NCBI GenBank assembly: GCA_964574865.1
Contig: CAZNOT010000002.1
Coordinates: 1-47,044, forward strand
DNA: 47,044 bases
DNA from: an uncultured Candidatus Saccharibacteria bacterium
GTDB lineage: Bacteria; Patescibacteriota; Minisyncoccia; Phycocordibacterales; JAACPR01
Reading direction: 5' to 3'
The notes under the pieces were generated by a model, which was not told the DNA's origin, ran no database searches, and saw only the letters and a program-made list of their open reading frames with translations. Below are positions 3,600 to 22,900 of this stretch, in pieces. Position 1 is the stretch's first letter. The number at the start of each line of letters is the position of its first letter. A program made the translations under genes and the position numbers.

Positions 3600-4277
3600 T
3601 CACGCGCGCGCCATCGAGAACATTCCGACGGCCACCGCGCCGGCCTTCCGCAGCGCCGCGCGGCACGCGCGCAGCGTGGCGCCCGTCGTCGCCACGTCGT
3701 CGACGAGCGCAACGGCGTGGCCGCGCACGATCGATTCATCAGCCGCGAACGCGTCGCGTAGGTTACCGAGCCGCGCCGCGCGGGCGAGCTTGGCCTGCTT
3801 CGGCGTCTCGCGTACTTTGCGCAGGGCGCCTGGCGCGTACCGGGCGACATTCGGCGCGAGCGCCGCGAGAACCCCTTCGCAGAGGAGCTCCGTCTGGCTG
3901 TACCCGCGCTCGCGCCGGCTGGCAGGGGAGAGCGGCACCGGCACGATTAATGTCTCGGCGCGCCGCCCGGCTTCTTCCCGCTCTCCGATCCAGGCGAGAA
4001 CGCCTTCGGCTAGAAGCGCGCCGACGCCGGCAGCCGCCCCGCGGCTCCGCGATTCCTTCACGAGGAGCGTGAGCCGGGCCGCCAGAGGGTCGTCGTACGC
4101 GAAGAGCGCGTGTATCGGGAGCGCTGGGTCGGGGAGCGGCGCGCGAATTGCCGCGCGGAGCGCTTCGGGCGGGCACCGCTCGAGCAGCCGGTCGATCTCC
4201 GCGCGCGGAAAAAACGCATCGGCGACGGCGCGCCCCGCGCCTCTCTTCGGCCCGATTGTCGCCGCCGTCGTTCTCAC
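3600..4277 (-). CDS. comF: ComF-family phosphoribosyltransferase-like competence protein
   Basis: 225 aa with a GTG start. The C-terminal PRPP-binding loop VALVDDVATTGATLRA is typical of ComF/PRTases. The N-terminal Zn-finger is absent. Confidence 0.7.
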   Translation of the reverse strand: MRTTAATIGPKRGAGRAVADAFFPRAEIDRLLERCPPEALRAAIRAPLPDPALPIHALFAYDDPLAARLTLLVKESRSRGAAAGVGALLAEGVLAWIGEREEAGRRAETLIVPVPLSPASRRERGYSQTELLCEGVLAALAPNVARYAPGALRKVRETPKQAKLARAARLGNLRDAFAADESIVRGHAVALVDDVATTGATLRACRAALRKAGAVAVGMFSMARA

Positions 4278-11946: not shown

Positions 11947-12140
11947 GGCGGGAAACTCCATTCGGCGCGCAAAACGGTCTTTTGCGCCTCGGGGTACACG
12001 CGTGCACCGTCGGCTAGAAAGAACCGGTTTTTCGCACCCGGATGCCGCCCCCCGTGCCGCGGGGGGCAAAATACAGGTTCGCCCTTGATTTTTTGGGAGA
12101 GAAAGACGTCCGGAAAACTGTGCTAACCTCTGCCTCACCT

Positions 12141-13565
12141 ATGCCGGGCAAGTACCATCTGACCGTCGGCCTCGAAATTCACGCCGAGCTCAAGACGGCG
12201 ACGAAGGCGTTCGGCCGCGCGAAGAACGACCCGTTCGGCGCGGCGCTCCCGAATTCGAACGTCGACGAGATCGACCTGGGGCACCCCGGAACGCTGCCCG
12301 CGCTCAACGCCGAGGCGGTGCGCCAGGTCGTGCGCGTCGGCCTCGCGATCGGCGGCAAAATCGCCGAGTTCGCCGAGTTCGACCGCAAGCACTACTTCTA
12401 CCCGGACATCCCGAAGGGCTACCAGATCAGCCAGTACGAGCACCCGCTGGTGACGGGCGGGCAAATTGGCGCGGTCAAGATTACGCGTATCCACCTCGAG
12501 GAGGACACCGCGACCTCGAAGCACGACCGCGGCGATTTCTCGCTCGTCGATTTCAACCGCGCGGGCGTGCCGCTCATGGAGCTCGTCACGGAGGCGTGCA
12601 TTCACTCGGCGGAAGAGGCCGTCGCCTTCGCGTCCGATCTCCAGCTCCTCCTCCGCTACCTCGGCGCCTCCGAGGCGAACATGGAGCGCGGCGAGATGCG
12701 CGTCGAGGCGAACATTTCCATTTCGGATACGGCGGGGAAGCTCGGCACGAAGGTCGAGGTGAAAAACCTCAACTCGTTCCGCGCGGTTGCCGGCGCGATC
12801 GCCTACGAGGCGGCGCGCATGGAGAAACTTTTGGAATCGGGGAAGGGCGACGAAATTGTCCAGGAGACGCGCGGTTGGGACGAGGTGGGCGAGAGGACCG
12901 TGCCCCAGCGGCGCAAGGAGACCGCGGACGACTACCGCTACTTCCCGGAGCCGGATCTGCCGAAGCTGCGCCCGCACGAGCTGTTCGATCTGGGCGCGCT
13001 CCGGGCCGAGCTCCCCGAGCTGCCGTGGGCGAGGCGAGCGCGCTACCGCGCGCTCGGGCTCTCCGAGAAAGAGGCCGAGGTGCTCGTCGGCGACCTCGAT
13101 CTCGCGGTCTACTACGAGGCCGTCGCCGGCGCGCTGCCGTCCGAGAAGGCGAAGAAGCTGGCCGCGAACTACATCCTTTCCGACATCCTCGGCCTCGCGA
13201 AGAAGGCGGGCGAACCGGCGTCTAAAATCCCGGTCGCCGCGCTCGTTGAAATCATCGGGATGGTGGACTCCGCGGCCATCAACTCGCGCGTCGCCAAAGA
13301 CCTCGTCGCGTTCTATTGGGCCGACCCCGCCGCGGCCGAGCTGCCGAAGGCTAAGGTCGAGCGCGAGGGGCTCGGCATGATGGGGGAGGCCGCGCTCGCG
13401 CCGATCGTCTCGGCCGTCGTTGCCGCGCAGCCGCAGGTCGTCGCCGACTACAAAACTGGCAAGGTCGCGCTCCTCGAGTTTCTCGTGGGGCAAGCAATGA
13501 AGGAGACGAAGGGGCGCGCCGACGCGGCGGTTCTGCGCGACCTGTTCCGCGCCGCCCTCGGGTAG
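12141..13565 (+). CDS. gatB: Asp/Glu-tRNA amidotransferase subunit B
   Basis: The ORF opens at 12042, but the conserved N-terminus YHLTVGLEIHAELKT starts at ATG 12141. The GatB/YqeY tail is present. Confidence 0.9.
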   Translation: MPGKYHLTVGLEIHAELKTATKAFGRAKNDPFGAALPNSNVDEIDLGHPGTLPALNAEAVRQVVRVGLAIGGKIAEFAEFDRKHYFYPDIPKGYQISQYEHPLVTGGQIGAVKITRIHLEEDTATSKHDRGDFSLVDFNRAGVPLMELVTEACIHSAEEAVAFASDLQLLLRYLGASEANMERGEMRVEANISISDTAGKLGTKVEVKNLNSFRAVAGAIAYEAARMEKLLESGKGDEIVQETRGWDEVGERTVPQRRKETADDYRYFPEPDLPKLRPHELFDLGALRAELPELPWARRARYRALGLSEKEAEVLVGDLDLAVYYEAVAGALPSEKAKKLAANYILSDILGLAKKAGEPASKIPVAALVEIIGMVDSAAINSRVAKDLVAFYWADPAAAELPKAKVEREGLGMMGEAALAPIVSAVVAAQPQVVADYKTGKVALLEFLVGQAMKETKGRADAAVLRDLFRAALG

Positions 13566-13583: not shown

Positions 13584-13617
13584 TGAGAATTCTCACCGCC
13601 GAAATTCGGTCTTTTTT
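13584..13617 (+). terminator. weak terminator-like structures after gatB
   Basis: TGAGAATTCTCA palindrome, then a short CCGAA/TTCGG stem, then CTTTTTTG. Confidence 0.4.
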
Positions 13618-13619
13618 GT

Positions 13620-13625
13620 TAAGAT
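13620..13625 (+). promoter_or_regulatory. -10 box TAAGAT, 8 nt before ATG 13634
   Basis: Follows the gatB terminator-like T-tract. Confidence 0.5.
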
Positions 13626-13633
13626 TTCTCCGA

Positions 13634-16600
13634 ATGAGCCAGGCGTCGAAAAGACGAATCATCTTAGCGCTCACCCTCGCCGCGATCGGTTTGATCGGGC
13701 TCTTGCCTGTGGACGTTGAGGCCCGCCGTGGCTTTCCGCACTTCGTCCAGAGCGAGATTTCTGTGGGAGAAAACCTCGCGCGCATTGGCGGGGCAATCTT
13801 TGGCTCGCCCGAGCGCGGCGTCGCATCGGCCGGATCGGTCACGTCGCCCGAATGCGGCTGGTGGGACTGGCTCGTCTCTGGCTGCTCGTCCGATCCGGTC
13901 GAGCTCGTGCCCTCGGCCGCGGTCTCTGAGACCGGCGCGCCCGCGGTGAGCCGCGCCGTGGGCGGAGCCGCTCCGTCTGCCGCGCGCCCCGGCGACTACT
14001 ACGTCACCGAGAACGTCATTGAGCGCGTCGTCGTTCGCGACGAGACTGAATCTTCGGGGGCCCGCGCGCTCCTGGAGCGCCTCGGCGTCCTCGAGGCGCA
14101 GGTCGCTCGCTTCGACGGCCGCATCGACGCGATCAACGGCTACTCGCCGAGGTCGACGCGCCGCTCGCGCGCGGCCGAGCGCGAAGACACGAGCGCCTCT
14201 ATCGCCGCCGCCGTCTCGGGCGGCTCGTCCGACGCCTCGTTCGGCACGCTCTCCGTCTCCGGCGCGGCGACCTCTACCTTCGGCAACGGGCTAGACATCG
14301 CGGACGGCTGCTTTGCGATCGACGGCGTGTGCCTCGATCTCGGCGACGCCGCGGACGGAACCTTCTCGACTACTTCGGCCGCGTACTGGGAGTCGACCCA
14401 GGCGCGCTGGGCCACGACGTCATCCGACTACTGGGAGTCGACCCAGGCGCGCTGGGCCACGACGTCATCTGCGTACTGGCTCACGACGAAAACGACGGCT
14501 GACCTCGCGGAGAGCGGCAGCCTCTACTACACCGACGCGCGCGTCGCGGCCTACGTTTCCGCCTCCTCGACCATTCCGCACATCGGCGGCTCTGCCTACG
14601 GTGACGTTCTCTACTGGACTGGGACCGCGTGGTCCCAAATGGCCACCTCCACCCTCGGCATTGACGGTTCGAAGTGGGACGATGCGACGGGCGGCATCAA
14701 CTACTCGGGCGGGAACGTCGCAATCGGTAATTCAGCACCTTCAGAATTACTGACTCTTGGTTCAGCAACAGAAACTTCGGGGAACAGAAAGGCACTGAGA
14801 TTTAATGCTGGCGGCTACGCAGCTCCAGGGGTATTCAATACAAACTCTAATGGCGATAAAATTATTTTTTATCAGGGATCTGACTTTGACGGACGATTCG
14901 GCGCTTCTTCGGGCGGTGAGATTTGGTTGAAGGCGCTTTCTACTAATACCAGCAATACTGGATTTGGATCCCTTAGTTTTTACACTGGCCAAGGAGTTAC
15001 TCCGTCTCCGAATCTCAGAATGCATCTAGGTGCGACTGGCGGAGTCGCTCTCGGCGGCACGATTACTAGTGCAACAAACTACACAGGAGCTACTTTGGTG
15101 CTTAGTACAGGGGGAAATGTGGGGATAGGAGCAAGCAGCCCAGTAACAGGTTTGGAAGTAGCTAATAATGGGGTAAATATATCGGGGAATTTCAATTACA
15201 ACATGTATGTTCATAATGCTGGAGGCAACAAGGGTTTTGCATTTGGATACGATACTAGTTCGCAAACAGGTATCATTGCTCCATCGGGCGGTACTGCTGA
15301 CCTTGCGTTTTGGACGCCAAATAGCAGTGTTTGGAGTGAAAAAATACGGTTTACCGCTGCGGGTAATGTGGGAATAGGTAGCACTACCCCAACAAATAAA
15401 TTAGTGGTCCAGGCGACAAACGGCGATGTAAGTATTGGAACATTCCAATCTTCTTATCCCGGTATTGCCATCAATAACACCAATGCCGGCTCATCGTACG
15501 GAGGATTCATGCGATGGCAGAAAAATGGAACAAACCAATGGGGATACGGAATGGATTACGTGGGTAACGGAGGTCAAGATTTCTGGCTCTATAACTACGC
15601 TTCCTCTAAAGACGCACTTTATTTCTCTTCGGCAAATGGGTACACGACCGTTGCCGGGCATTCAAACGCCGCCTCACCTCTTGCGGTCAACGGTGGCGCT
15701 GCGATCGGCGCAGGGTACGTTACAACCGCCGCGCCGTCTAACGGTTTGTTGGTGCAGGGGAGTGTGGGCGTCGGCACGTCGACCCCCTGGAAAGCCTTTT
15801 CGGTCACGGGCGCCGTTGCCTTCGACGGGCTCTCCTCGATGGGCGCTTCGGACCAGTACGTCTGTATCAACCCAACGACGAAAGAGGTTACGTTCGGCGC
15901 CGTTTGCACCGCGTCCTCCGAGCGCTTCAAGCACGACATTGAGGTCCTCGGGGATTCGGACGGGCTCGCGCTCGTGCGCCAGCTCCGCCCGGTATCGTTC
16001 GCCTACAACGAGACCGGCCAGACGCGCCTCGGCTTCATCGCCGAGGACATCGACCGCATCGACCCGCGCCTCGTGTTCTACGAGTCTGACGGTACGACTC
16101 CCAAAGGCGTGCTCTACCAAGACTTCACACCCATCCTCGCGAAATCTGTTCAGGAGCTCGACGTGCGCATCGAAGGCTTGGCCGAAATGGAGCCGTGGTC
16201 AGGTGACGCCGAGCCAGACTCGTTTGCCGCGCGCGTCGTGGCGCGGATCGCCGCGTGGCTCGGCGACGCCGGGAACGGCCTCGCCGCAGTCTTCGCCGGG
16301 AAGGTTCAAACAAACGAGCTCTGCCTCGCGGGCGCGAACGGCTCGACCACCTGCATCACCCGAGATCAGCTCGAGGAGCTGCTAGGCACAGACGTGCCGC
16401 TCCCGGTGCCGGGCAATGGCCCCGACGACGGCCCGGCTCCTTCTGCGGCCGAACTTCACGGCGCGGTCGGCGAGACCGCGGCGGACTTCGAGGCTGGCGG
16501 CGCTGGCGCACCCACTGCCGACGGGTCGGACGGTGTTCCTGTCGACGTTGCGGCGGTCGGCGAATCGGCTGACGGCGCCCCAGACAGTCCCACGGCCGAG

Positions 16601-16765
16601 GGAGGCGAAAATTCTGATGAACCTACCGGCGATACCTCCGACGTTTCGGCGCCGAGCGAAAGCTCTTCCGAAAATTCGGGCGCCCATTCCTCGGGCGAAT
16701 CGTCAGAAAGTCTGTCCGAATCTTCCGGCGGAGGCGACTCATCGGACGTCGCGTCGGGCGAGTAG
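13634..16765 (+). CDS. giant secreted tail-fibre-like protein with C-terminal Peptidase_S74-type intramolecular chaperone domain and acidic Ser-rich tail
   Basis: The ORF opens at TTG 13616; ATG 13634 lies 8 nt after TAAGAT. N-terminal signal/anchor RRIILALTLAAIGLIGLLP. Repeated NVGIG..P...L.V fibre motifs. SSERFKHDIEVL...LRPVSFAYN...GFIAEDI...VLYQDF fits the endosialidase-chaperone (S74) pattern. Confidence 0.8.
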   Translation: MSQASKRRIILALTLAAIGLIGLLPVDVEARRGFPHFVQSEISVGENLARIGGAIFGSPERGVASAGSVTSPECGWWDWLVSGCSSDPVELVPSAAVSETGAPAVSRAVGGAAPSAARPGDYYVTENVIERVVVRDETESSGARALLERLGVLEAQVARFDGRIDAINGYSPRSTRRSRAAEREDTSASIAAAVSGGSSDASFGTLSVSGAATSTFGNGLDIADGCFAIDGVCLDLGDAADGTFSTTSAAYWESTQARWATTSSDYWESTQARWATTSSAYWLTTKTTADLAESGSLYYTDARVAAYVSASSTIPHIGGSAYGDVLYWTGTAWSQMATSTLGIDGSKWDDATGGINYSGGNVAIGNSAPSELLTLGSATETSGNRKALRFNAGGYAAPGVFNTNSNGDKIIFYQGSDFDGRFGASSGGEIWLKALSTNTSNTGFGSLSFYTGQGVTPSPNLRMHLGATGGVALGGTITSATNYTGATLVLSTGGNVGIGASSPVTGLEVANNGVNISGNFNYNMYVHNAGGNKGFAFGYDTSSQTGIIAPSGGTADLAFWTPNSSVWSEKIRFTAAGNVGIGSTTPTNKLVVQATNGDVSIGTFQSSYPGIAINNTNAGSSYGGFMRWQKNGTNQWGYGMDYVGNGGQDFWLYNYASSKDALYFSSANGYTTVAGHSNAASPLAVNGGAAIGAGYVTTAAPSNGLLVQGSVGVGTSTPWKAFSVTGAVAFDGLSSMGASDQYVCINPTTKEVTFGAVCTASSERFKHDIEVLGDSDGLALVRQLRPVSFAYNETGQTRLGFIAEDIDRIDPRLVFYESDGTTPKGVLYQDFTPILAKSVQELDVRIEGLAEMEPWSGDAEPDSFAARVVARIAAWLGDAGNGLAAVFAGKVQTNELCLAGANGSTTCITRDQLEELLGTDVPLPVPGNGPDDGPAPSAAELHGAVGETAADFEAGGAGAPTADGSDGVPVDVAAVGESADGAPDSPTAEGGENSDEPTGDTSDVSAPSESSSENSGAHSSGESSESLSESSGGGDSSDVASGE
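14384..14479 (+). repeat. 45-bp in-frame tandem duplication (2 copies plus the start of a third)
   Basis: TACTGGGAGTCGACCCAGGCGCGCTGGGCCACGACGTCATC(C/T)G.. repeats at 14384 and 14429, and TACTGG recurs at 14474. It encodes YWESTQARWATTSS(D/A). Confidence 0.9.
14725..15660 (+). other. low-GC cassette inside the giant gene (compositional island, in frame)
   Basis: Hand counts of G+C per 60 nt: 21 at 14821-14880 and 27 at 15121-15180. Flanking lines give 39 (14281-14340) and 40 (16021-16080). Boundaries are approximate. Confidence 0.8.
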
Positions 16766-16803
16766 GTAAACTTTATCCACAGGCAACGAGCAACGATTCG
16801 AGT

Positions 16804-16809
16804 TACAAT
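16804..16809 (+). promoter_or_regulatory. -10 box TACAAT, 12 nt before ATG 16822
   Basis: Head of the four-gene surface module. Confidence 0.55.
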
Positions 16810-16821
16810 TCGGACGCACAC

Positions 16822-17460
16822 ATGAGAAACAAACAGTACGTTCTGCCGCTCGCGCTCTCGGCGCTCGTCCTGCTATCGCCTGTCGCGTACCCGCTCGTGG
16901 AGGCGGCGCAGGCGCAGGCGGTGACCGACGAGGTCATCGTAACCCTCAATGTCGACGCGGGAATTTCCATCACCAGCCCGGCTGACGCTTCGATGAGCCA
17001 GAACCTTGGCGTCTCGGCCAACACAGCGGTTGCGTCGACCGTTTGGAACGTTAAGACGAACAACGCGGCCGGCTACACCATCGCCGTCAAGGCAACCACC
17101 TCTCCCGCGCTCCGCAATGCTACGAACAACATTGCCGACTACACGCCGGCCGTCGCTGCCACGCCTGAGACGTGGGACGTTTCCAACACCGCCGAGTTCG
17201 GATTCTCGGCTTTCGGGACCGACATCTCTACCGGCACCTGGGGCACCGACTCCGACTGCATCGCCGGCGCAAACGTGCCGAGCGCCGGTCTCAAGTATCG
17301 CGATTTTGACACCAGCGACATTCAGATTGGTTCGCGTTCCGCCACTACCACCACTACCGGAATCGATACAACCGTCTGCTACGCGGTCGAGCAGGACGGC
17401 TTCTACGTCCCCTCTGGCACCTACGTCGCCACGGTTGTCGCCACGGCCGCGACGCAGTAG
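16822..17460 (+). CDS. secreted beta-rich surface subunit A (WxL/spore-coat-U-like pattern, paralog of 18438..19166)
   Basis: 212 aa. Signal peptide ...LVEAAQAQA|V. Motif block STVWNVKTNNAAGYTIAVKATTSPAL, a Cys pair, and the terminal strand SGTYVATVVATAATQ. Confidence 0.6.
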   Translation: MRNKQYVLPLALSALVLLSPVAYPLVEAAQAQAVTDEVIVTLNVDAGISITSPADASMSQNLGVSANTAVASTVWNVKTNNAAGYTIAVKATTSPALRNATNNIADYTPAVAATPETWDVSNTAEFGFSAFGTDISTGTWGTDSDCIAGANVPSAGLKYRDFDTSDIQIGSRSATTTTTGIDTTVCYAVEQDGFYVPSGTYVATVVATAATQ

Positions 17461-17463
17461 TAT
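17458..17463 (+). promoter_or_regulatory. -10-like TAGTAT, 6 nt before ATG 17470
   Basis: Overlaps the upstream TAG stop. It could equally be coincidental. Confidence 0.3.
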
Positions 17464-17469
17464 CCGGCA

Positions 17470-18438
17470 ATGCCTAGGGTTCGAACGGGGAAGCTCCGGC
17501 GAGTAATCGCGGCAGCAACGTTCCTTTTCGCTGCCTTTTCCCCGAGCCTCGCGTCCGCGTTCTCCGTCTCCCAGGTCACCGTCGAGCCCGTCGGCGATTT
17601 TGTTGTCGAGCCCGCGAAAATCGAGCTCACGCTCGAGCCGGGCGAGACGGTCACCAAGACGGTCACGGTGACCAGTCGCATCTCGGGCGAGACCGATTTC
17701 TCCATCTCTCTCGAAGACTTCCTCGGCACGGATAACGGCAGCTACGCGGTCCGGCTGCTCGGCGACCAGGTGAGCCCCTACTCATTCCGGTCGGCCATCC
17801 GCCCCGACGCGAGCAGCTTCTCGCTCGGCTTCGGCGAGCGCGCGGTCGTCTCGATCGAGATCGCCGCGCCGGCTGCCGCCGCGCCCGGCGGCTACTACAC
17901 GTCGGTGGTCGTCGCCGGCGACCCGCGCGGCGACACGCTCGACGGCGGCGGCGCGAAGGTGGTGTCGCGCGTCGCGCAGCTCCTCTTCGTGCGGGTCGAC
18001 GGCGAGGTCGAGGAGAGCGGCGCGCTGCTCGACTTCCGCCTCTCGCCGCCCGGCTTCTTCCGGAGCGGCGGCCCGTTCCAGTTCGAGGCGCTCTTCCAGA
18101 ACACCGGCAACGTGCACCTCGCGCCCTACGGCAGCGTGACCGTTCGCAATCTGATCGGCTCGACCGTGGCCGAGATTCCCGTCGACGCGTACTACGCGAT
18201 GCCTAAATCGATGCGCTACCGCACCGTCGAGTGGCCGGGCAAGCCGATGATGCTCGGCTACTACACCGCCGAAATTGAGCTCTACAAGGGTTACGGCGAC
18301 GAGGGCGATACCTCGAAGGCGACGGTGTCCTTCCTGGTAATCCCGTGGCTCTACCTCGGAATCGCCGCCGTGGCGCTGCTCCTCTCGTGGCTCGCCACGC
18401 GCTACGTCCGACGTAACTTCGAGCTGAAGCGACGCTGA
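17470..18438 (+). CDS. membrane-anchored two-beta-sandwich protein, DUF916/DUF3324-like
   Basis: 322 aa with a signal peptide. FSVSQVTVEPVGDFVVEPAKIELTLEPGETVTKTVTV fits the DUF916-like pattern. The second domain FQNTGNVHLAPYGSVTVRN...YYTAEIELYKG fits the DUF3324-like pattern. C-terminal TM helix plus an RRNFELKRR tail. Confidence 0.6.
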   Translation: MPRVRTGKLRRVIAAATFLFAAFSPSLASAFSVSQVTVEPVGDFVVEPAKIELTLEPGETVTKTVTVTSRISGETDFSISLEDFLGTDNGSYAVRLLGDQVSPYSFRSAIRPDASSFSLGFGERAVVSIEIAAPAAAAPGGYYTSVVVAGDPRGDTLDGGGAKVVSRVAQLLFVRVDGEVEESGALLDFRLSPPGFFRSGGPFQFEALFQNTGNVHLAPYGSVTVRNLIGSTVAEIPVDAYYAMPKSMRYRTVEWPGKPMMLGYYTAEIELYKGYGDEGDTSKATVSFLVIPWLYLGIAAVALLLSWLATRYVRRNFELKRR

Positions 18439-19166
18439 TGCGGGCACGGTTCGCGGCAATCGTCTCCCTCGCGCTCGCCCTCCCCGTGGGGGCGCTCGCC
18501 GCCGCGCGAACCGGTACGGCCTACCAGATTCTCTACGACAGCGTGAACTCGGGAGGCCTCCTCTCGACCAGTACCTCGTACGGGCTCGAGGACACGATCG
18601 GCGAGGCGGCGGTCGGCACCTCGAGCTCCGCGACGTACCAGGTCTCGGCCGGCTACCAGCGGGAGCTCACCGGCGGCTCGCTCTCCATTTCCGCGCCGGG
18701 TAACGGGGCCATCCCGAACATCTCGGGGCTCACGGGCGGCACGGAGGCGACGACCGTCTCCTGGACGGTGACGTCGAGCGGTGGCTACCAGCTCGCGGCT
18801 AAGGCGTCCGCGTCGCCCGCGCTCACGGGTCCCGGCGGCGCGTTCTTCTCGGACTACCAGACCGGCACGCCCGATTTCGTTTTCACGTACGGGACGTCGG
18901 ACGCGCTCTTCGGGTACTCGCCGGAGGGCAGCCACGTGGTGCAGCGGTTCAAGGACAACGGCTCGGCGTGCAACGTGAACAGCGGCGAGACGTCGGACCG
19001 CTGCTACGTTGGCTTCACCACGTCTGACGTGGCGGTGGCGTCGAGCGGCTCGGGTACGGGTGGCACGGCGACGACGCTGCGGCTGCGCGCGGGCATCGGT
19101 TCAGCTAGAATCCAGGACAGTGGCAGCTACCAGGCGACAATCACGGTCACGGCTGTTCCGCTCTAG
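18438..19166 (+). CDS. secreted beta-rich surface subunit C (paralog of 16822..17460 with an extra N-terminal SxY..G repeat region)
   Basis: 242 aa; its start overlaps the previous stop (TGATG). Signal peptide present. TVSWTVTSSGGYQLAAKASASPAL, the Cys pair SACNV..DRCYVG, and the terminal strand SGSYQATITVTAVPL. Confidence 0.6.
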   Translation: MRARFAAIVSLALALPVGALAAARTGTAYQILYDSVNSGGLLSTSTSYGLEDTIGEAAVGTSSSATYQVSAGYQRELTGGSLSISAPGNGAIPNISGLTGGTEATTVSWTVTSSGGYQLAAKASASPALTGPGGAFFSDYQTGTPDFVFTYGTSDALFGYSPEGSHVVQRFKDNGSACNVNSGETSDRCYVGFTTSDVAVASSGSGTGGTATTLRLRAGIGSARIQDSGSYQATITVTAVPL

Positions 19167-19887
19167 CGCGGCGGCCGTCATCCTTGCGCTCGCGCCGCTC
19201 GTCGTCGGCGCCGCGGGAGACGGCGTGAACGTCAGCGTCTCGGCCGAATTCTGCAACCTCGACCTGGTGTGCGATTCGATCGAGAACCACATCGTGTGCC
19301 CGAGCGATTGCGAGGCGCCGCCCGAGCCGGTGGCCGAACCCGAGCGCGACGAGGAGGGCAGGCGACGTTCCTCGAGCGGCCGGAGCGGCGGCGGGGGCGG
19401 TGGGGGAGACGTCGTGGCGCCTGACGTCGTCTTCGCTCCCGAGCAGGGGAGCGCCTCGAGCGTCTGGTCTAGCCCGGAAGACGCGGCGTTCTCTGGGCGC
19501 TTTTCCGTCTCGATCAACGGTCGCGGCGCGGTCGAGTTCTCGTGGCCGCAGCTCGGCGGCAGCGTGCGGGTGCTGCGCGCCGAGGGCGAGTCATTTCCAA
19601 CCTCGCCCTACGACGGCGGGCTGGTGGTCTACGAGGGCGACGCCAAAGGTTTCGAGGATCGAACGGTAGAGCCGAACCAAACGTACCGCTACGCGGTTTT
19701 CTACGATTCCGGCGGCGGCACCTACGGCGTTCGCAACCTCGTCGTCGCCGAGACCGGCTCGGCGTTCTCGGTCATCTCTCTCTTCGACCGCGCGGCCGAG
19801 CTGCCGCCGGAAGCGTACGCCGGCGCGCTCGCGCTCGCGGGGTTCGGGTTCGTTCCGCTCGTGCGCATCGCGCTCGCGCGGCTCTAG
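19120..19887 (+). CDS. Cys-knot / Gly-run / FN3-like protein with C-terminal hydrophobic anchor
   Basis: The ORF opens at 19009 and overlaps the upstream gene. GTG 19120 gives a plausible signal peptide (RRQSRSRLFRSSAAAVILALAPLVVGAAG). FSWPQLGGSVRVLRAEG...YRYAVF is FN3-like. The start is uncertain. Confidence 0.5.
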   Translation: MAATRRQSRSRLFRSSAAAVILALAPLVVGAAGDGVNVSVSAEFCNLDLVCDSIENHIVCPSDCEAPPEPVAEPERDEEGRRRSSSGRSGGGGGGGDVVAPDVVFAPEQGSASSVWSSPEDAAFSGRFSVSINGRGAVEFSWPQLGGSVRVLRAEGESFPTSPYDGGLVVYEGDAKGFEDRTVEPNQTYRYAVFYDSGGGTYGVRNLVVAETGSAFSVISLFDRAAELPPEAYAGALALAGFGFVPLVRIALARL

Positions 19888-19925
19888 GGAGGAAGAAAAA
19901 CTAATTGGGGAAAAGAAAACAGGTG

Positions 19926-19949
19926 GCCACGGTACAATTGTACCGTGGC
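19926..19949. promoter_or_regulatory. 24-bp perfect palindrome (candidate operator) spanning the -10 box and start codon of the 1261-aa gene
   Basis: GCCACGGTACAA|TTGTACCGTGGC, verified base by base. It contains TACAAT (19933..19938) and GTG 19945. Confidence 0.6.
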
Positions 19950-22900
19950 GTATTTTGGGTTTTTTCTGAGAAGGCGCGCGCGCGTTCTCGTCGCGGCGTG
20001 CCTCGCCGCGCTCTCTTTTGTCTCGCCCGCTCGCGCGGCGTTCTCTCAGGCGATTAGCTACCAAGGCAAGCTCGCCGACTCGAGCGGCATCGCGGTCGCC
20101 GACGGCGACTACAACATGGAGTTCAAGCTCTACGACGCGGTTTCGAACGGCAACCTCCTGTGGACCGAGACGCGGAGCGGCGCGAACAAGGTGACCGTGA
20201 CCGACGGTCTTTTCAGCGTGCAACTCGGCTCGATCGCCGCGCTCTCGAGCGTCAATTTCAATCAGCCGTTGTGGCTCTCGGTGAACATTGGCGGCACCGG
20301 CACCCCGAGCTGGGACGGCGAGATGACGCCGAGGAAGCCTATGGGTTCGGTGCCCGCCGCGTTCGTGGCCGGCGTGGCCTACGGCCTCGACGCGACCTAC
20401 GCCACGTCGACCTACGCCACATCGACGCGCATCTACGCGGGAGCCTCGCTCAACGTCGCCACCACATCGTCCGCCGCCGCGCTCGCCGTGCAGGGGAGCG
20501 CGCTCCTCTCGGGCAACCTCGGTCTCGCGAACCTGACCGCGACCGGCACGGCGACCGTCGGCGCGCTCTCGGTCGGCGCGCTCTCGGGGCCGCTGCAGGC
20601 GATTGCCGGCGTCGTATCGGCTACGTCCACGATGTCCGTCGGCTACGGCGGCACCGGCCTCTCGACGGCACCGACCTACGGGCAGGTGCTCGTGGGTAAC
20701 GCCTCGGGAGGCTACACGCTCACCGCGACCTCCTCCCTCGGCATCGGCGGCGGGAGCGTGACGGCAGACTCGCTCAACTTCACGGACATGAGCGACACGA
20801 TGGCGCTCGACGCCGGCACGTCGATCGGCTTCGGCGCGAGCAGCTACGGTCTCACGTTCACGAACGACGGCAGCGGCAACGAGACGCACAACTTGTCTTC
20901 GACGGGCGACTTCGTGATCCAGGACAACGGCTCGACGGTGTTCTCGGTGGACGATACGGGGAAGATTACCGCGGACAACCACCTGTTCATTGGAGCGCAG
21001 GCCGACTCCGCGTCGACCGGCGATGCCGCGTACACGATCTTGAACTCGGCTGCGGGCACCTTCGGCGCGCAGACCGCGCGCGACAAAATCTCGTCGATCG
21101 CCGTGTACGAGGGCAAGCTCTTCGTCGCCGTCGCCGAGACGGACGCAGCTGGCATCTACCGCTGGGATGGGGGCACGACCTGGACTTTGGTGACCTCGAG
21201 CACGCTGGGGCGCGTCATCTCGGGCGACGCGACGGACGCTGACGCGTTCGTGATGACCGTTTTCAACGGCGAGCTGTGGGTCGGCAGCCAGAACGGCGCC
21301 GCGACGGCTGGCGTGTACAAGAGTTCGACCGTCGATACGGCGTCCGCGGGCGACAACTTCACGTTGGTCAACTCTGCGCGCGGCACGATCAACGCCGCTG
21401 CGCAGACCGGCATTTCGGACATGGTTGTCTACAACGGCCAGCTCATCGTCGCGACGCAGAAGGCGAACGCGGCCGAAATTGCCCGCTACGAGGGCGGCAC
21501 GACGTTCACCCGCATCAACGCGACCGTCGGTAAATCAGCGGCCGAGACCACCGCCGACAAGGACGCGTTCGTCCTAGCCATCTGCAACAACGTCCTGTGG
21601 TCGGGGTCGATTTCCGGGGCGGCGACCGCGATCGTGGCGAGCTACCAAGGTAACGGGACCACCTGGATCAACACCACGGTCACGGCGACGGGCGGCAGTT
21701 TTGGCGCGGAGACGTCCATATCTGACATCGACAGCCTAGCCTGCTACAACGGCTCGCTGTACATGACGGCCTCGAAGACAGCCGGCAACGCCGCGGCCGT
21801 CTACTACTACAAGGCGTCAGCGGCGCCGGTCGCGAACGTCGCGGCCAACTGGGTGCGCGTGAACCCGGCGGTCGGCAAAATGCTGGCGGCCGACTCGGCG
21901 GTCATCGACAAGTTCATCCTGAAGACGTACCGCGGTCGCCTCTACGCTGGCTCGCAGACTGCGACCGGCGACGGTGCGGGCGCGCTCTTCGAATACTCGG
22001 GCGTGCCGCTCGCGGACTGGCCGCTCATGACGACCGGCGCGCGCGGCACGTTCGGGTCCCAGACTGCCGTCGACAGTATTTCTGCCCTCCAGGACTTCAA
22101 CGGCACTCTCTACGTCGGTACCGACGATCTCACCGCGGGCGTCGGCTCGGTCTACACGTGGGGCAAACTCTTCCAAAACTCGTTCGGGCTGAAGTTCGAG
22201 GCGACCGACGGCGCGTACGGCACGATGAGCTTCGTGGGGAACGTGCAGACTGGCGATTCTGGCCGTGGCGGCAGCTTCCTCTTGAGTAACTCAATCATGA
22301 TGACCTCTGGCGCTTACGACGTCGCCGAGGACTACCCGACGCGCGACGAGGCGCTCGCGCCGATGGACCTCGTGAGCCTCGACGCCCTCGAGCAGGGCAT
22401 GGTCCGCCGCTCTTCTGGGCGAGGGGACAAGGGCGTCATTGGCATCTACTCCGAGGCCCCAGCCCTACGGCTGGCGCAGCCCGGGGAGGCAATCGATGGC
22501 ACTCGGGCGATTCCGGTCGCTCTCGCCGGCCGCGTGCCGGTGCGCGTCACGCTCGACGGCGGGCCGATCGCGATCGGCGACTACCTCACCGCGTCGCCTG
22601 AACCTGGCGCGGCGATGCGCGCGTCGCGGCCAGGGCGCGTCGTCGGCCGCGCGATTTCCGGCTACAGTGGCGCCGAGGGTGAAGAGGCGAAGGTGACCGT
22701 CTTCGTCGGCACCGAGACAATCGGCTGGGACGAGATTGCTATCGCCGAGGTGCAGTCGGCCGAGGCCGCGGCCGTCGATTCCGTCTCGCGGTTCTTCGCC
22801 GACGTATCGACCGCGACCGAAGACCTCGCGCTCGCCTCGATCGCCGGGGCGGACGACCTGAGTCAAGTCATCGCCGAGAAGCTCGTCGCCGTGACCGCGA

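Follow-up and report, generated by a model that had tools for sequence, protein, structure and literature searches.

A GC-poor run of modules in the phage-like fibre gene of a GC-rich Patescibacterium, probably grafted from another lineage

Results

The fibre locus

The window in this study is the whole 47,044-nt contig CAZNOT010000002.1 from an uncultured member of the Patescibacteria (assembly GCA_964574865.1). It is contig C2 of a 58-contig metagenome-assembled genome (MAG) that is scaffolded with N gaps and estimated to be 91% complete; the genome, called G000 below, has a size of 615,742 bp and a guanine-plus-cytosine (GC) content of 66.1%. Genes for a type IV pilus (PilB-, PilT- and PilC-type) and gatB lie upstream of a fibre gene (13616..16765, + strand), which encodes 1049 amino acids (aa) from a TTG at 13616, or 1043 aa from an ATG at 13634, the form recorded in NCBI. 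Inside this gene is a block (14720-15682, codons 369-689) with a far lower GC content than its surroundings. Taken together, the evidence presented below indicates that the block is probably a real in-frame lateral replacement from a GC-poor lineage.

The housekeeping gene gatB (12042..13565, + strand; Pfam GatB_N 4.4e-99, GatB_Yqey 2.4e-27) is directly 5' of the fibre gene and is the synteny anchor for the comparison with relatives. The fibre gene itself has gatB on one side and a pilus-like operon on the other, and no phage genes are near. Only one copy was found in this genome. The original prediction described a giant fibre gene, a term that overstates its length, which is not giant for the family.

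The fibre protein scores 37.2 bits (E 3.7e-9; cut-off 22) for Peptidase_S74 (Pfam PF13884) at aa 767-820, and it matches the tail fibre family PHROG 1980 (9.3e-16). It starts with a hydrophobic N-terminal segment and contains repeat modules, each opened by a GNVGIG..P..L.V motif. Two peptides quoted earlier for the GC-poor part, GNVGIGASSP and AGNVGIGSTTPTNKLVV, are present in the translation. Judged by these features, the product appears to be a membrane-anchored, phage-tail-fibre-like cellular surface protein with a predicted self-cleaving S74 chaperone.

Base composition of the segment

The segment 14720-15682 has a GC content of 46.5%, compared with 67.0% for the rest of the open reading frame (ORF). 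The drop falls mainly at synonymous sites: GC at third codon positions (GC3) is 0.386 in codons 369-689 and 0.805 in the remainder of the ORF, while GC at first positions (GC1) is slightly lower inside the segment. In 300-bp windows, GC is 0.45-0.51 between about 14600 and 15650, down from 0.63-0.72, and a two-state GC3 model is preferred over a uniform one with a doubled log-likelihood difference (2*dlnL) of 173. When the whole genome was scanned in 5500 sliding 900-bp windows (mean 0.662, sd 0.036), the four lowest were all in the segment, with a minimum of 0.466 that is 5.4 sd under the genome mean. The sampled-line counts of the original prediction, 21/60 at 14821-14880 and 27/60 at 15121-15180, were reproduced exactly, with flanking lines at 37-39/60. 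The GC, GC3 and codon-usage scans that it proposed confirm a foreign-like composition in 14720-15682.

The two edges of the segment differ in shape. The left breakpoint is sharp, with a 2-lnL support interval of 14714..14729 (+ strand, codons 367-372), and falls within the codons for GNVAIG/NSAP (GGG AAC GTC GCA ATC GGT / AAT TCA GCA CCT, the slash marking the break). The right breakpoint has a 2-lnL interval of 15628..15727 (+ strand, codons 671-704) and shows a graded rise back to high GC3. Both joins are in frame and in module register. The true frame holds no stop in the 321 codons of the segment, as had been predicted, and the GC-driven shadow ORFs are indeed gone: every one of the five other frames contains 9-25 stops, against about 30 stops in total within flanks of equal length.

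Elsewhere in the genome, GC is also lowered between dnaA and dnaN, in an IS200-like transposase gene and in two small ORFs, though nowhere as far as in the segment. The transposase gene is a 213-aa ORF on contig C33 (1335-1976, minus strand; GC3 0.57, Pfam Y1_Tnp, E 5.6e-7) and is a weaker compositional outlier. The small lower-GC ORFs on contigs C19 (7692-8327) and C11 (about 179-900) gave no Pfam match.

Codon usage and start of homology

Synonymous codon choice was scored against two reference sets, the host's own genes and the housekeeping genes at two Minisyncoccia loci of 41% GC. The log-ratio per codon favours low-GC usage in each of the three modules that we delimit in the segment (A1, -0.84; A2, -1.00; B, -0.67 ln units), whereas outside the segment it is host-like (+0.45 to +0.63). 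The left breakpoint is also where homology begins: alignments to the fibre proteins P0003, P0002, P0124 and P0125 all start at aa 361-368. P0003 belongs to a Minisyncoccia MAG (locus 41% GC, gene GC3 0.35), P0124 is encoded at a locus of 41% GC (GC3 0.30), and the contigs of P0002 have 40.5% GC; the GC content of the P0125 source is not known.

The gatB-fibre locus in relatives

The orthologous locus was compared in the three places where it was available: the window genome G000, the same-genus genome G002, and L028, a Logan contig from SRR23592395. In G002, the ORF upstream of the fibre gene is 88% identical in aa sequence to gatB, and the fibre gene is directly downstream; in L028, gatB is likewise upstream of the fibre gene. 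The original prediction had named an equally GC-poor stretch in relatives as the mark of an inherited feature. The fibre genes of both relatives are instead uniformly high in GC (G002, GC 0.59-0.72 and GC3 0.79; L028, GC3 0.65-1.0 throughout).

The N-terminal part of the fibre is 46-51% identical to that of G002 and 63% identical to that of L028 over about 260-285 aa, and the similarity to L028 stops after aa 245-269. The G000, G002 and L028 fibres have only their N-terminal 245-290 aa in common, and their distal modules differ. G002 carries module B at the equivalent position, in a high-GC form. The genes downstream of the fibre in G002 and L028 differ from those of the window. In L028, a single in-frame TAG at 4164-4166 (CTG TAG GTG) splits the fibre frame, and gene callers give products of 622 aa and 1442 aa; it could be the mark of a pseudogene, a sequencing error or a site of read-through.

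Among fibre loci of more distant relatives (L003-L012), the seven loci from same-family genomes have 32-43% GC and the three loci from same-order genomes 41-47% GC. The genus of the window (65-66% GC; G000, G002 and L028) is a high-GC outlier among these low-GC relatives, and potential donors are plentiful. A low-GC lineage shows a similar pattern at its own locus. The Minisyncoccia loci L017 (encoding P0003) and L027 (encoding P0124) have 6.4 kb of flanks that are 84% identical in nucleotide sequence, and their fibres share only the first 232 aa (83%), followed by different distal modules. These comparisons point to module shuffling as the rule at such loci, both in the window genus and in the low-GC lineage.

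The right junction in an independent assembly

The right junction was recovered in the Logan contig L026 (4750 bp), from an independent k=31 assembly of SRR8893621 made with a different assembler. L026 is collinear with window positions 15235-19984 at 99.94% identity, with three single-nucleotide polymorphisms (SNPs), all outside the segment. It carries 448 nt of the segment unbroken across the right junction and continues into the native part of the gene and the genes that follow. The contig starts at 15235 within the segment and ends at 19984, just past the start of a gene of 1261 aa, at a 24-bp palindrome; neither end is at a repeated 31-mer of this genome. Low coverage could explain the break at 15235, as could strain variation or k-mers that another organism shares.

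Modules within the segment

Module A1 (aa 369-480; 14720..15055, + strand) is low in GC and has the motif NRKAL..GGY..PG.F.T.SNGDKIIFY.G.D.DGRFG...W.K. It is 58-59% identical to modules of P0125, P0002, P0003, P0128 and P0141. It was not found in the fibre protein of G002 (P0122); L028 was not searched for A1 specifically. A profile of A1 against the PDB gave only a non-significant metzincin match (E 0.033). Module A2 (aa 481-575; 15056..15340, + strand), also low in GC, is a generic GNVGIG-type repeat module with 40-46% identity to many fibre proteins and no close counterpart in the G002 fibre.

Module B (aa 576-689; 15341..15682, + strand) is the third low-GC module, with the core SSYPGIAINNT..SYGGFMRWQKNGTNQWGYGMDYVGNGGQDFWLYNY. 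It is 69% identical to P0124 from the 41% GC locus and 55% identical to the congener G002; in one alignment, 76 of its 114 positions match P0124 and 62 match G002. Among the best 150 of 5486 HMMER hits and the loci that were fetched, these two are the only close matches, and the next best reach 28-45%. In a tree, module B of the window groups with P0124 at 93/90 support, inside a clade (97/97) that also holds G002.

The low-GC block stops some 80 residues short of the S74 cleavage motif. Its modules account for about the distal 40% of the mature fibre, the last 80 residues excepted. The segment alone had no match in Pfam.

Remaining parts of the fibre gene

The native N-terminal part (13634..14485, + strand; GC3 0.7-0.97) consists of a hydrophobic signal or anchor segment, RRIILALTLAAIGLIGLLPV, and the genus-conserved domain (aa 7-290). 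The repeat search found a 45-bp tandem duplication of about 2.4 copies (14369..14479, + strand), which has native composition and is 5' of the graft. It includes a 41-nt exact repeat, with repeated 31-mers at 14384-14394 and 14429-14439. The duplication encodes STQARWATTSS.YWE and is the sole source of repeated 31-mers within the 13-20 kb region; it would interrupt k=31 assemblies, and its length could vary.

Downstream of the segment, a stretch of native composition (aa 690-766; 15683..15913, + strand; GC3 0.73-0.83) leads up to the cleavage site and, going by the S74 mechanism, is presumed to be the extreme tip of the mature fibre. The Peptidase_S74 intramolecular chaperone predicted by Pfam (aa 767-820; 15914..16075, + strand) opens with SSERFK (aa 767-772, nt 15914-15931). 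This motif keeps the Ser and Lys five residues apart and has Ser, not Asp, as its second residue, unlike the canonical SDxxxK of the relatives G002, P0124 and L028. The translation ends in a C-terminal extension (WLGDAGNG...CITRDQLEELL) with an acidic Ser-rich tail (16076..16765, + strand). A homologous extension is found in G002 and P0124, and the extension and tail are presumably freed after cleavage.

Discussion

Proposed origin of the segment

We infer the direction and the mechanism of the transfer as follows. About 960 bp, comprising A1, A2 and B, would have been copied in from a homologous fibre gene, carried either by a GC-poor Patescibacterium or by a phage that infects such bacteria. 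The recipient would be a 66% GC Paceibacteria bacterium in an otherwise GC-poor family. The incoming DNA may have entered by uptake or phage co-infection, and the resident modules would have been replaced through microhomology or homology-facilitated recombination at the GNVGIG motif, the linker between modules across the protein family. A recA gene is present in the genome (motif scan). Microhomology at the GNVGIG codons is assumed because donors like those sampled would be too dissimilar in DNA for ordinary exchange by RecA. The left edge has the sharp look of an illegitimate join. The right edge is graded and lies close to module B with its linker, both of which were probably in the resident gene too, since G002 has B at the equivalent place.

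By analogy with other S74 proteins, the fibre would trimerise, cleave itself at S767 and thereby expose its distal shaft. It is plausible, on the same analogy, that swapping the distal shaft modules alters what the fibre binds.

The original prediction had proposed a module recently acquired from a low-GC donor. The low-GC graft is supported by the composition, the codon usage, the GC-rich loci of two relatives, the start of homology and the right-junction contig. The binding domain that it named would consist of shaft-type GNVGIG repeat modules, for which a role in receptor binding is plausible. The word recent holds only in the sense of little amelioration, given that the best relatives in databases are at 47-69% protein identity. 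The proposed search of the segment against low-GC genomes and phages gave a mixed outcome: low-GC fibre genes match at 47-69% aa identity, with no close donor and no match among GenBank phages at E 1e-5.

Several results weigh against a lateral replacement or weaken what can be said about it. A search with HMMER among 1.84 billion representatives found no donor closer than 47-69% protein identity, which implies an unsampled source. A word-indexed search and scans of genome, viral and metagenome contigs brought nothing closer, and at the DNA level the best similarity is 74-79% identity over short cores (for module B, over only 113-236 nt). No flanking repeats or mobile-element genes marking the event were found. 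The left junction has no second record: none was found by look-up of the full protein, its 32-nt pattern had 0 matches in metagenome contigs, the N-terminal 533 aa have no near-identical fragment on record, and an exact look-up of a guessed Logan fragment, aa 276-549, returned no record. In the module B phylogeny, placing B with the G002 clade is not rejected by the approximately unbiased (AU) test (p = 0.08), and synonymous sites are saturated in all comparisons; for these two reasons, the affinity of module B to the low-GC P0124 is only suggestive of a foreign origin. AlphaFold2 models of aa 349-766 (9 sequences, mean confidence score pLDDT 41.5) and of module A1 (7 sequences, pLDDT 40.0) were both unusable, so what the modules do is judged by analogy from their sequence.

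Alternative explanations

The block might owe its existence to the assembler, which would have joined the homologous fibre piece of a co-occurring GC-poor organism to the GC-rich contig at conserved motifs. The scaffolding of the MAG with N gaps would fit such a chimera, as would the position of both joins in or near motifs conserved in the family, the presence of the left junction in this one assembly only, and the stop of L026 inside the segment at 15235, where no repeated 31-mer accounts for the break. We nevertheless consider a chimera quite unlikely. It would require two crossovers that are both in frame and in register, while the right junction is reproduced without branching by the independent assembly of SRR8893621, whose three SNPs lie elsewhere. 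At the left join the composition flips in about 6 nt, from ten GC3 codons to mostly AT3 codons; because of this, an exact k-mer of at least 21 nt shared there between a gene with GC3 0.8 and one with GC3 0.35 is unlikely. Module B, moreover, is homologous to the content of the congener at the equivalent position. A donor that was a phage tail-fibre gene instead of a cellular fibre gene is a variant of lateral replacement in which only the source differs, and we find it doubtful. Genes of PHROG virion-structural, tail-fibre and tail-protein families lie on the contigs of the top match P0002 (40.5% GC), and A1-type modules also occur on the IMG/VR viral contig L020. P0002 is, however, only 41% identical overall, GenBank phages gave no match, and, among the top hits compared, the close matches to module B (55-69%) are only in the cellular fibre genes of P0124 and G002, in a chromosomal context.

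Two explanations would need no donor at all. An old, vertically inherited stretch could have been held AT-rich by selection, for example for slow translation during folding or for an embedded regulatory signal; the conserved frame and module structure, and the presence of B at the equivalent position in the congener, agree with this. It is very improbable all the same, as module B of the congener and the whole G002 and L028 fibre genes are high in GC, G002 yielded no A1 and nothing close to A2, and the codon choice resembles a foreign genome class rather than a subset of rare codons. Local hypermutation of a native segment, such as by cytosine deamination, would account for the slightly lower GC1 and is scarcely credible otherwise: the synonymous third positions of module B, set against G002, show transversions (C>A 9, G>T 4) in about the same number as transitions (C>T 11, G>A 5), no stop interrupts the frame, and the best relatives of A1 and A2 are in other lineages. 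Programmed cassette variation, of the kind known from pilE/pilS silent copies or diversity-generating retroelements (DGRs), was rejected, as blastn and tblastn of the segment find only the segment itself in the 91%-complete genome and it has no direct or inverted repeats on its flanks. Insertion of a mobile element was likewise rejected after the repeat search around the segment gave neither flanking repeats nor mobile-element genes.

Implications for host attachment

Patescibacteria, also known as the candidate phyla radiation (CPR), are mostly uncultured and thought to live attached to other microbes. To our knowledge, how they recognize their hosts is largely unexplained. By analogy with Bdellovibrio, whose fibres recognize prey, phage-like S74 fibres are leading candidates for this function. 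Phages are well known to swap modules between fibre genes, and such exchange is implied by the family name of the Bdellovibrio fibres, the mosaic adhesive trimers (MATs). The new element here is a clean graft across lineages, exposed by a GC gap of about 25 points between the host (66%) and the nearest relatives of the segment (about 41%). Because the recipient genus is a high-GC outlier, the swapped-in piece is conspicuous, and its edges, at the conserved GNVGIG linker, can be placed to within a few codons.

The locus supports cross-lineage module exchange in these fibres, as in phage tail fibres. G000 and G002 form a concrete pair of alleles for asking whether swapped modules change binding. 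No new kind of system is revealed, and what we describe is fairly ordinary mosaic adhesin evolution. We tentatively propose, as a possibility that goes well beyond this one graft, that the gatB-linked locus is a hot spot at which co-occurring Patescibacteria of very different GC content (66% and about 41%) and their phages would share one pool of fibre modules to re-target host attachment, with incoming modules compositionally time-stamped in the high-GC genus. If this is true, the tempo of host-range change in uncultured episymbionts could be measured from metagenomes alone.

Comparison with known systems

Mosaic phage fibres and tailspikes with S74 intramolecular chaperones, such as the L-shaped fibre of phage T5 and the K1F endosialidase, exchange distal modules between phages. 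The window fibre resembles them in its PF13884 chaperone, its PHROG tail-fibre match and an apparent module exchange at conserved linkers. It differs in that the gene is cellular, with no phage genes nearby, and has a predicted N-terminal membrane anchor in place of a virion attachment domain. Interspecies mosaic genes that arise through transformation and recombination, such as pbp2x and penA alleles of Streptococcus and Neisseria, and homology-facilitated illegitimate recombination offer another precedent. The likeness lies in an in-frame, apparently foreign block within a native gene, sharp at one edge and graded at the other and free of mobile-element scars, in a genome that has recA. Donor and recipient in cases of the pbp2x and penA type are 75-95% identical in DNA, whereas module B has only 74-79% DNA identity over 113-236 nt to the relatives sampled.

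In CPR genomes, a "tail fibre-like protein" co-localised with the Pam pilus operon has been noted, without further description (preprint PMC13278184). Like the locus studied here, it is a tail-fibre-like gene beside a small pilus-like operon in a CPR genome; the genes downstream of the fibre in G002 and L028 are not those of the window.

The closest system is that of the MAT fibres of Bdellovibrio bacteriovorus, in particular the S74 subgroup, of which Bd3182 is an example; a structure is available for Bd2133 (8OND; Caulton et al. 2024, PMC10769870). Neither "GC content" nor "horizontal" occurs as a term in the text of that paper (PMC10769870). The sole PDB sequence match of the window fibre is Bd2133 (8OND_A, E 9.9e-5, aa 425-624). 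Its repeat modules also align with P0093, a Bdellovibrio S74 "tail fiber domain-containing protein", at 30% identity over 288 aa. At the sequence level, the 8OND_A and P0093 matches suggest repeated beta-helix or beta-prism shaft modules as in MATs. BLASTP gave no alignment of fibre aa 1-330 with P0093, and the N-terminal domain is conserved only within the genus.

Both systems are chromosomal, secreted and phage-fibre-like, with GNVGIG-type modules and a C-terminal S74 chaperone, features that for the window fibre are read from its sequence, and in both the owner attaches to other bacteria. The window fibre differs in having no similarity to the MAT-like, beta-rich N-terminal domain of about 130 aa, in its SSERFK in place of SDxxxK, in its extra C-terminal extension and acidic tail, and in its single copy, compared with the 21 MATs of Bdellovibrio (PMC10769870). 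We therefore expect, from these shared features, that the fibre works like the S74-class MAT fibres, with an N-terminal domain of its own.

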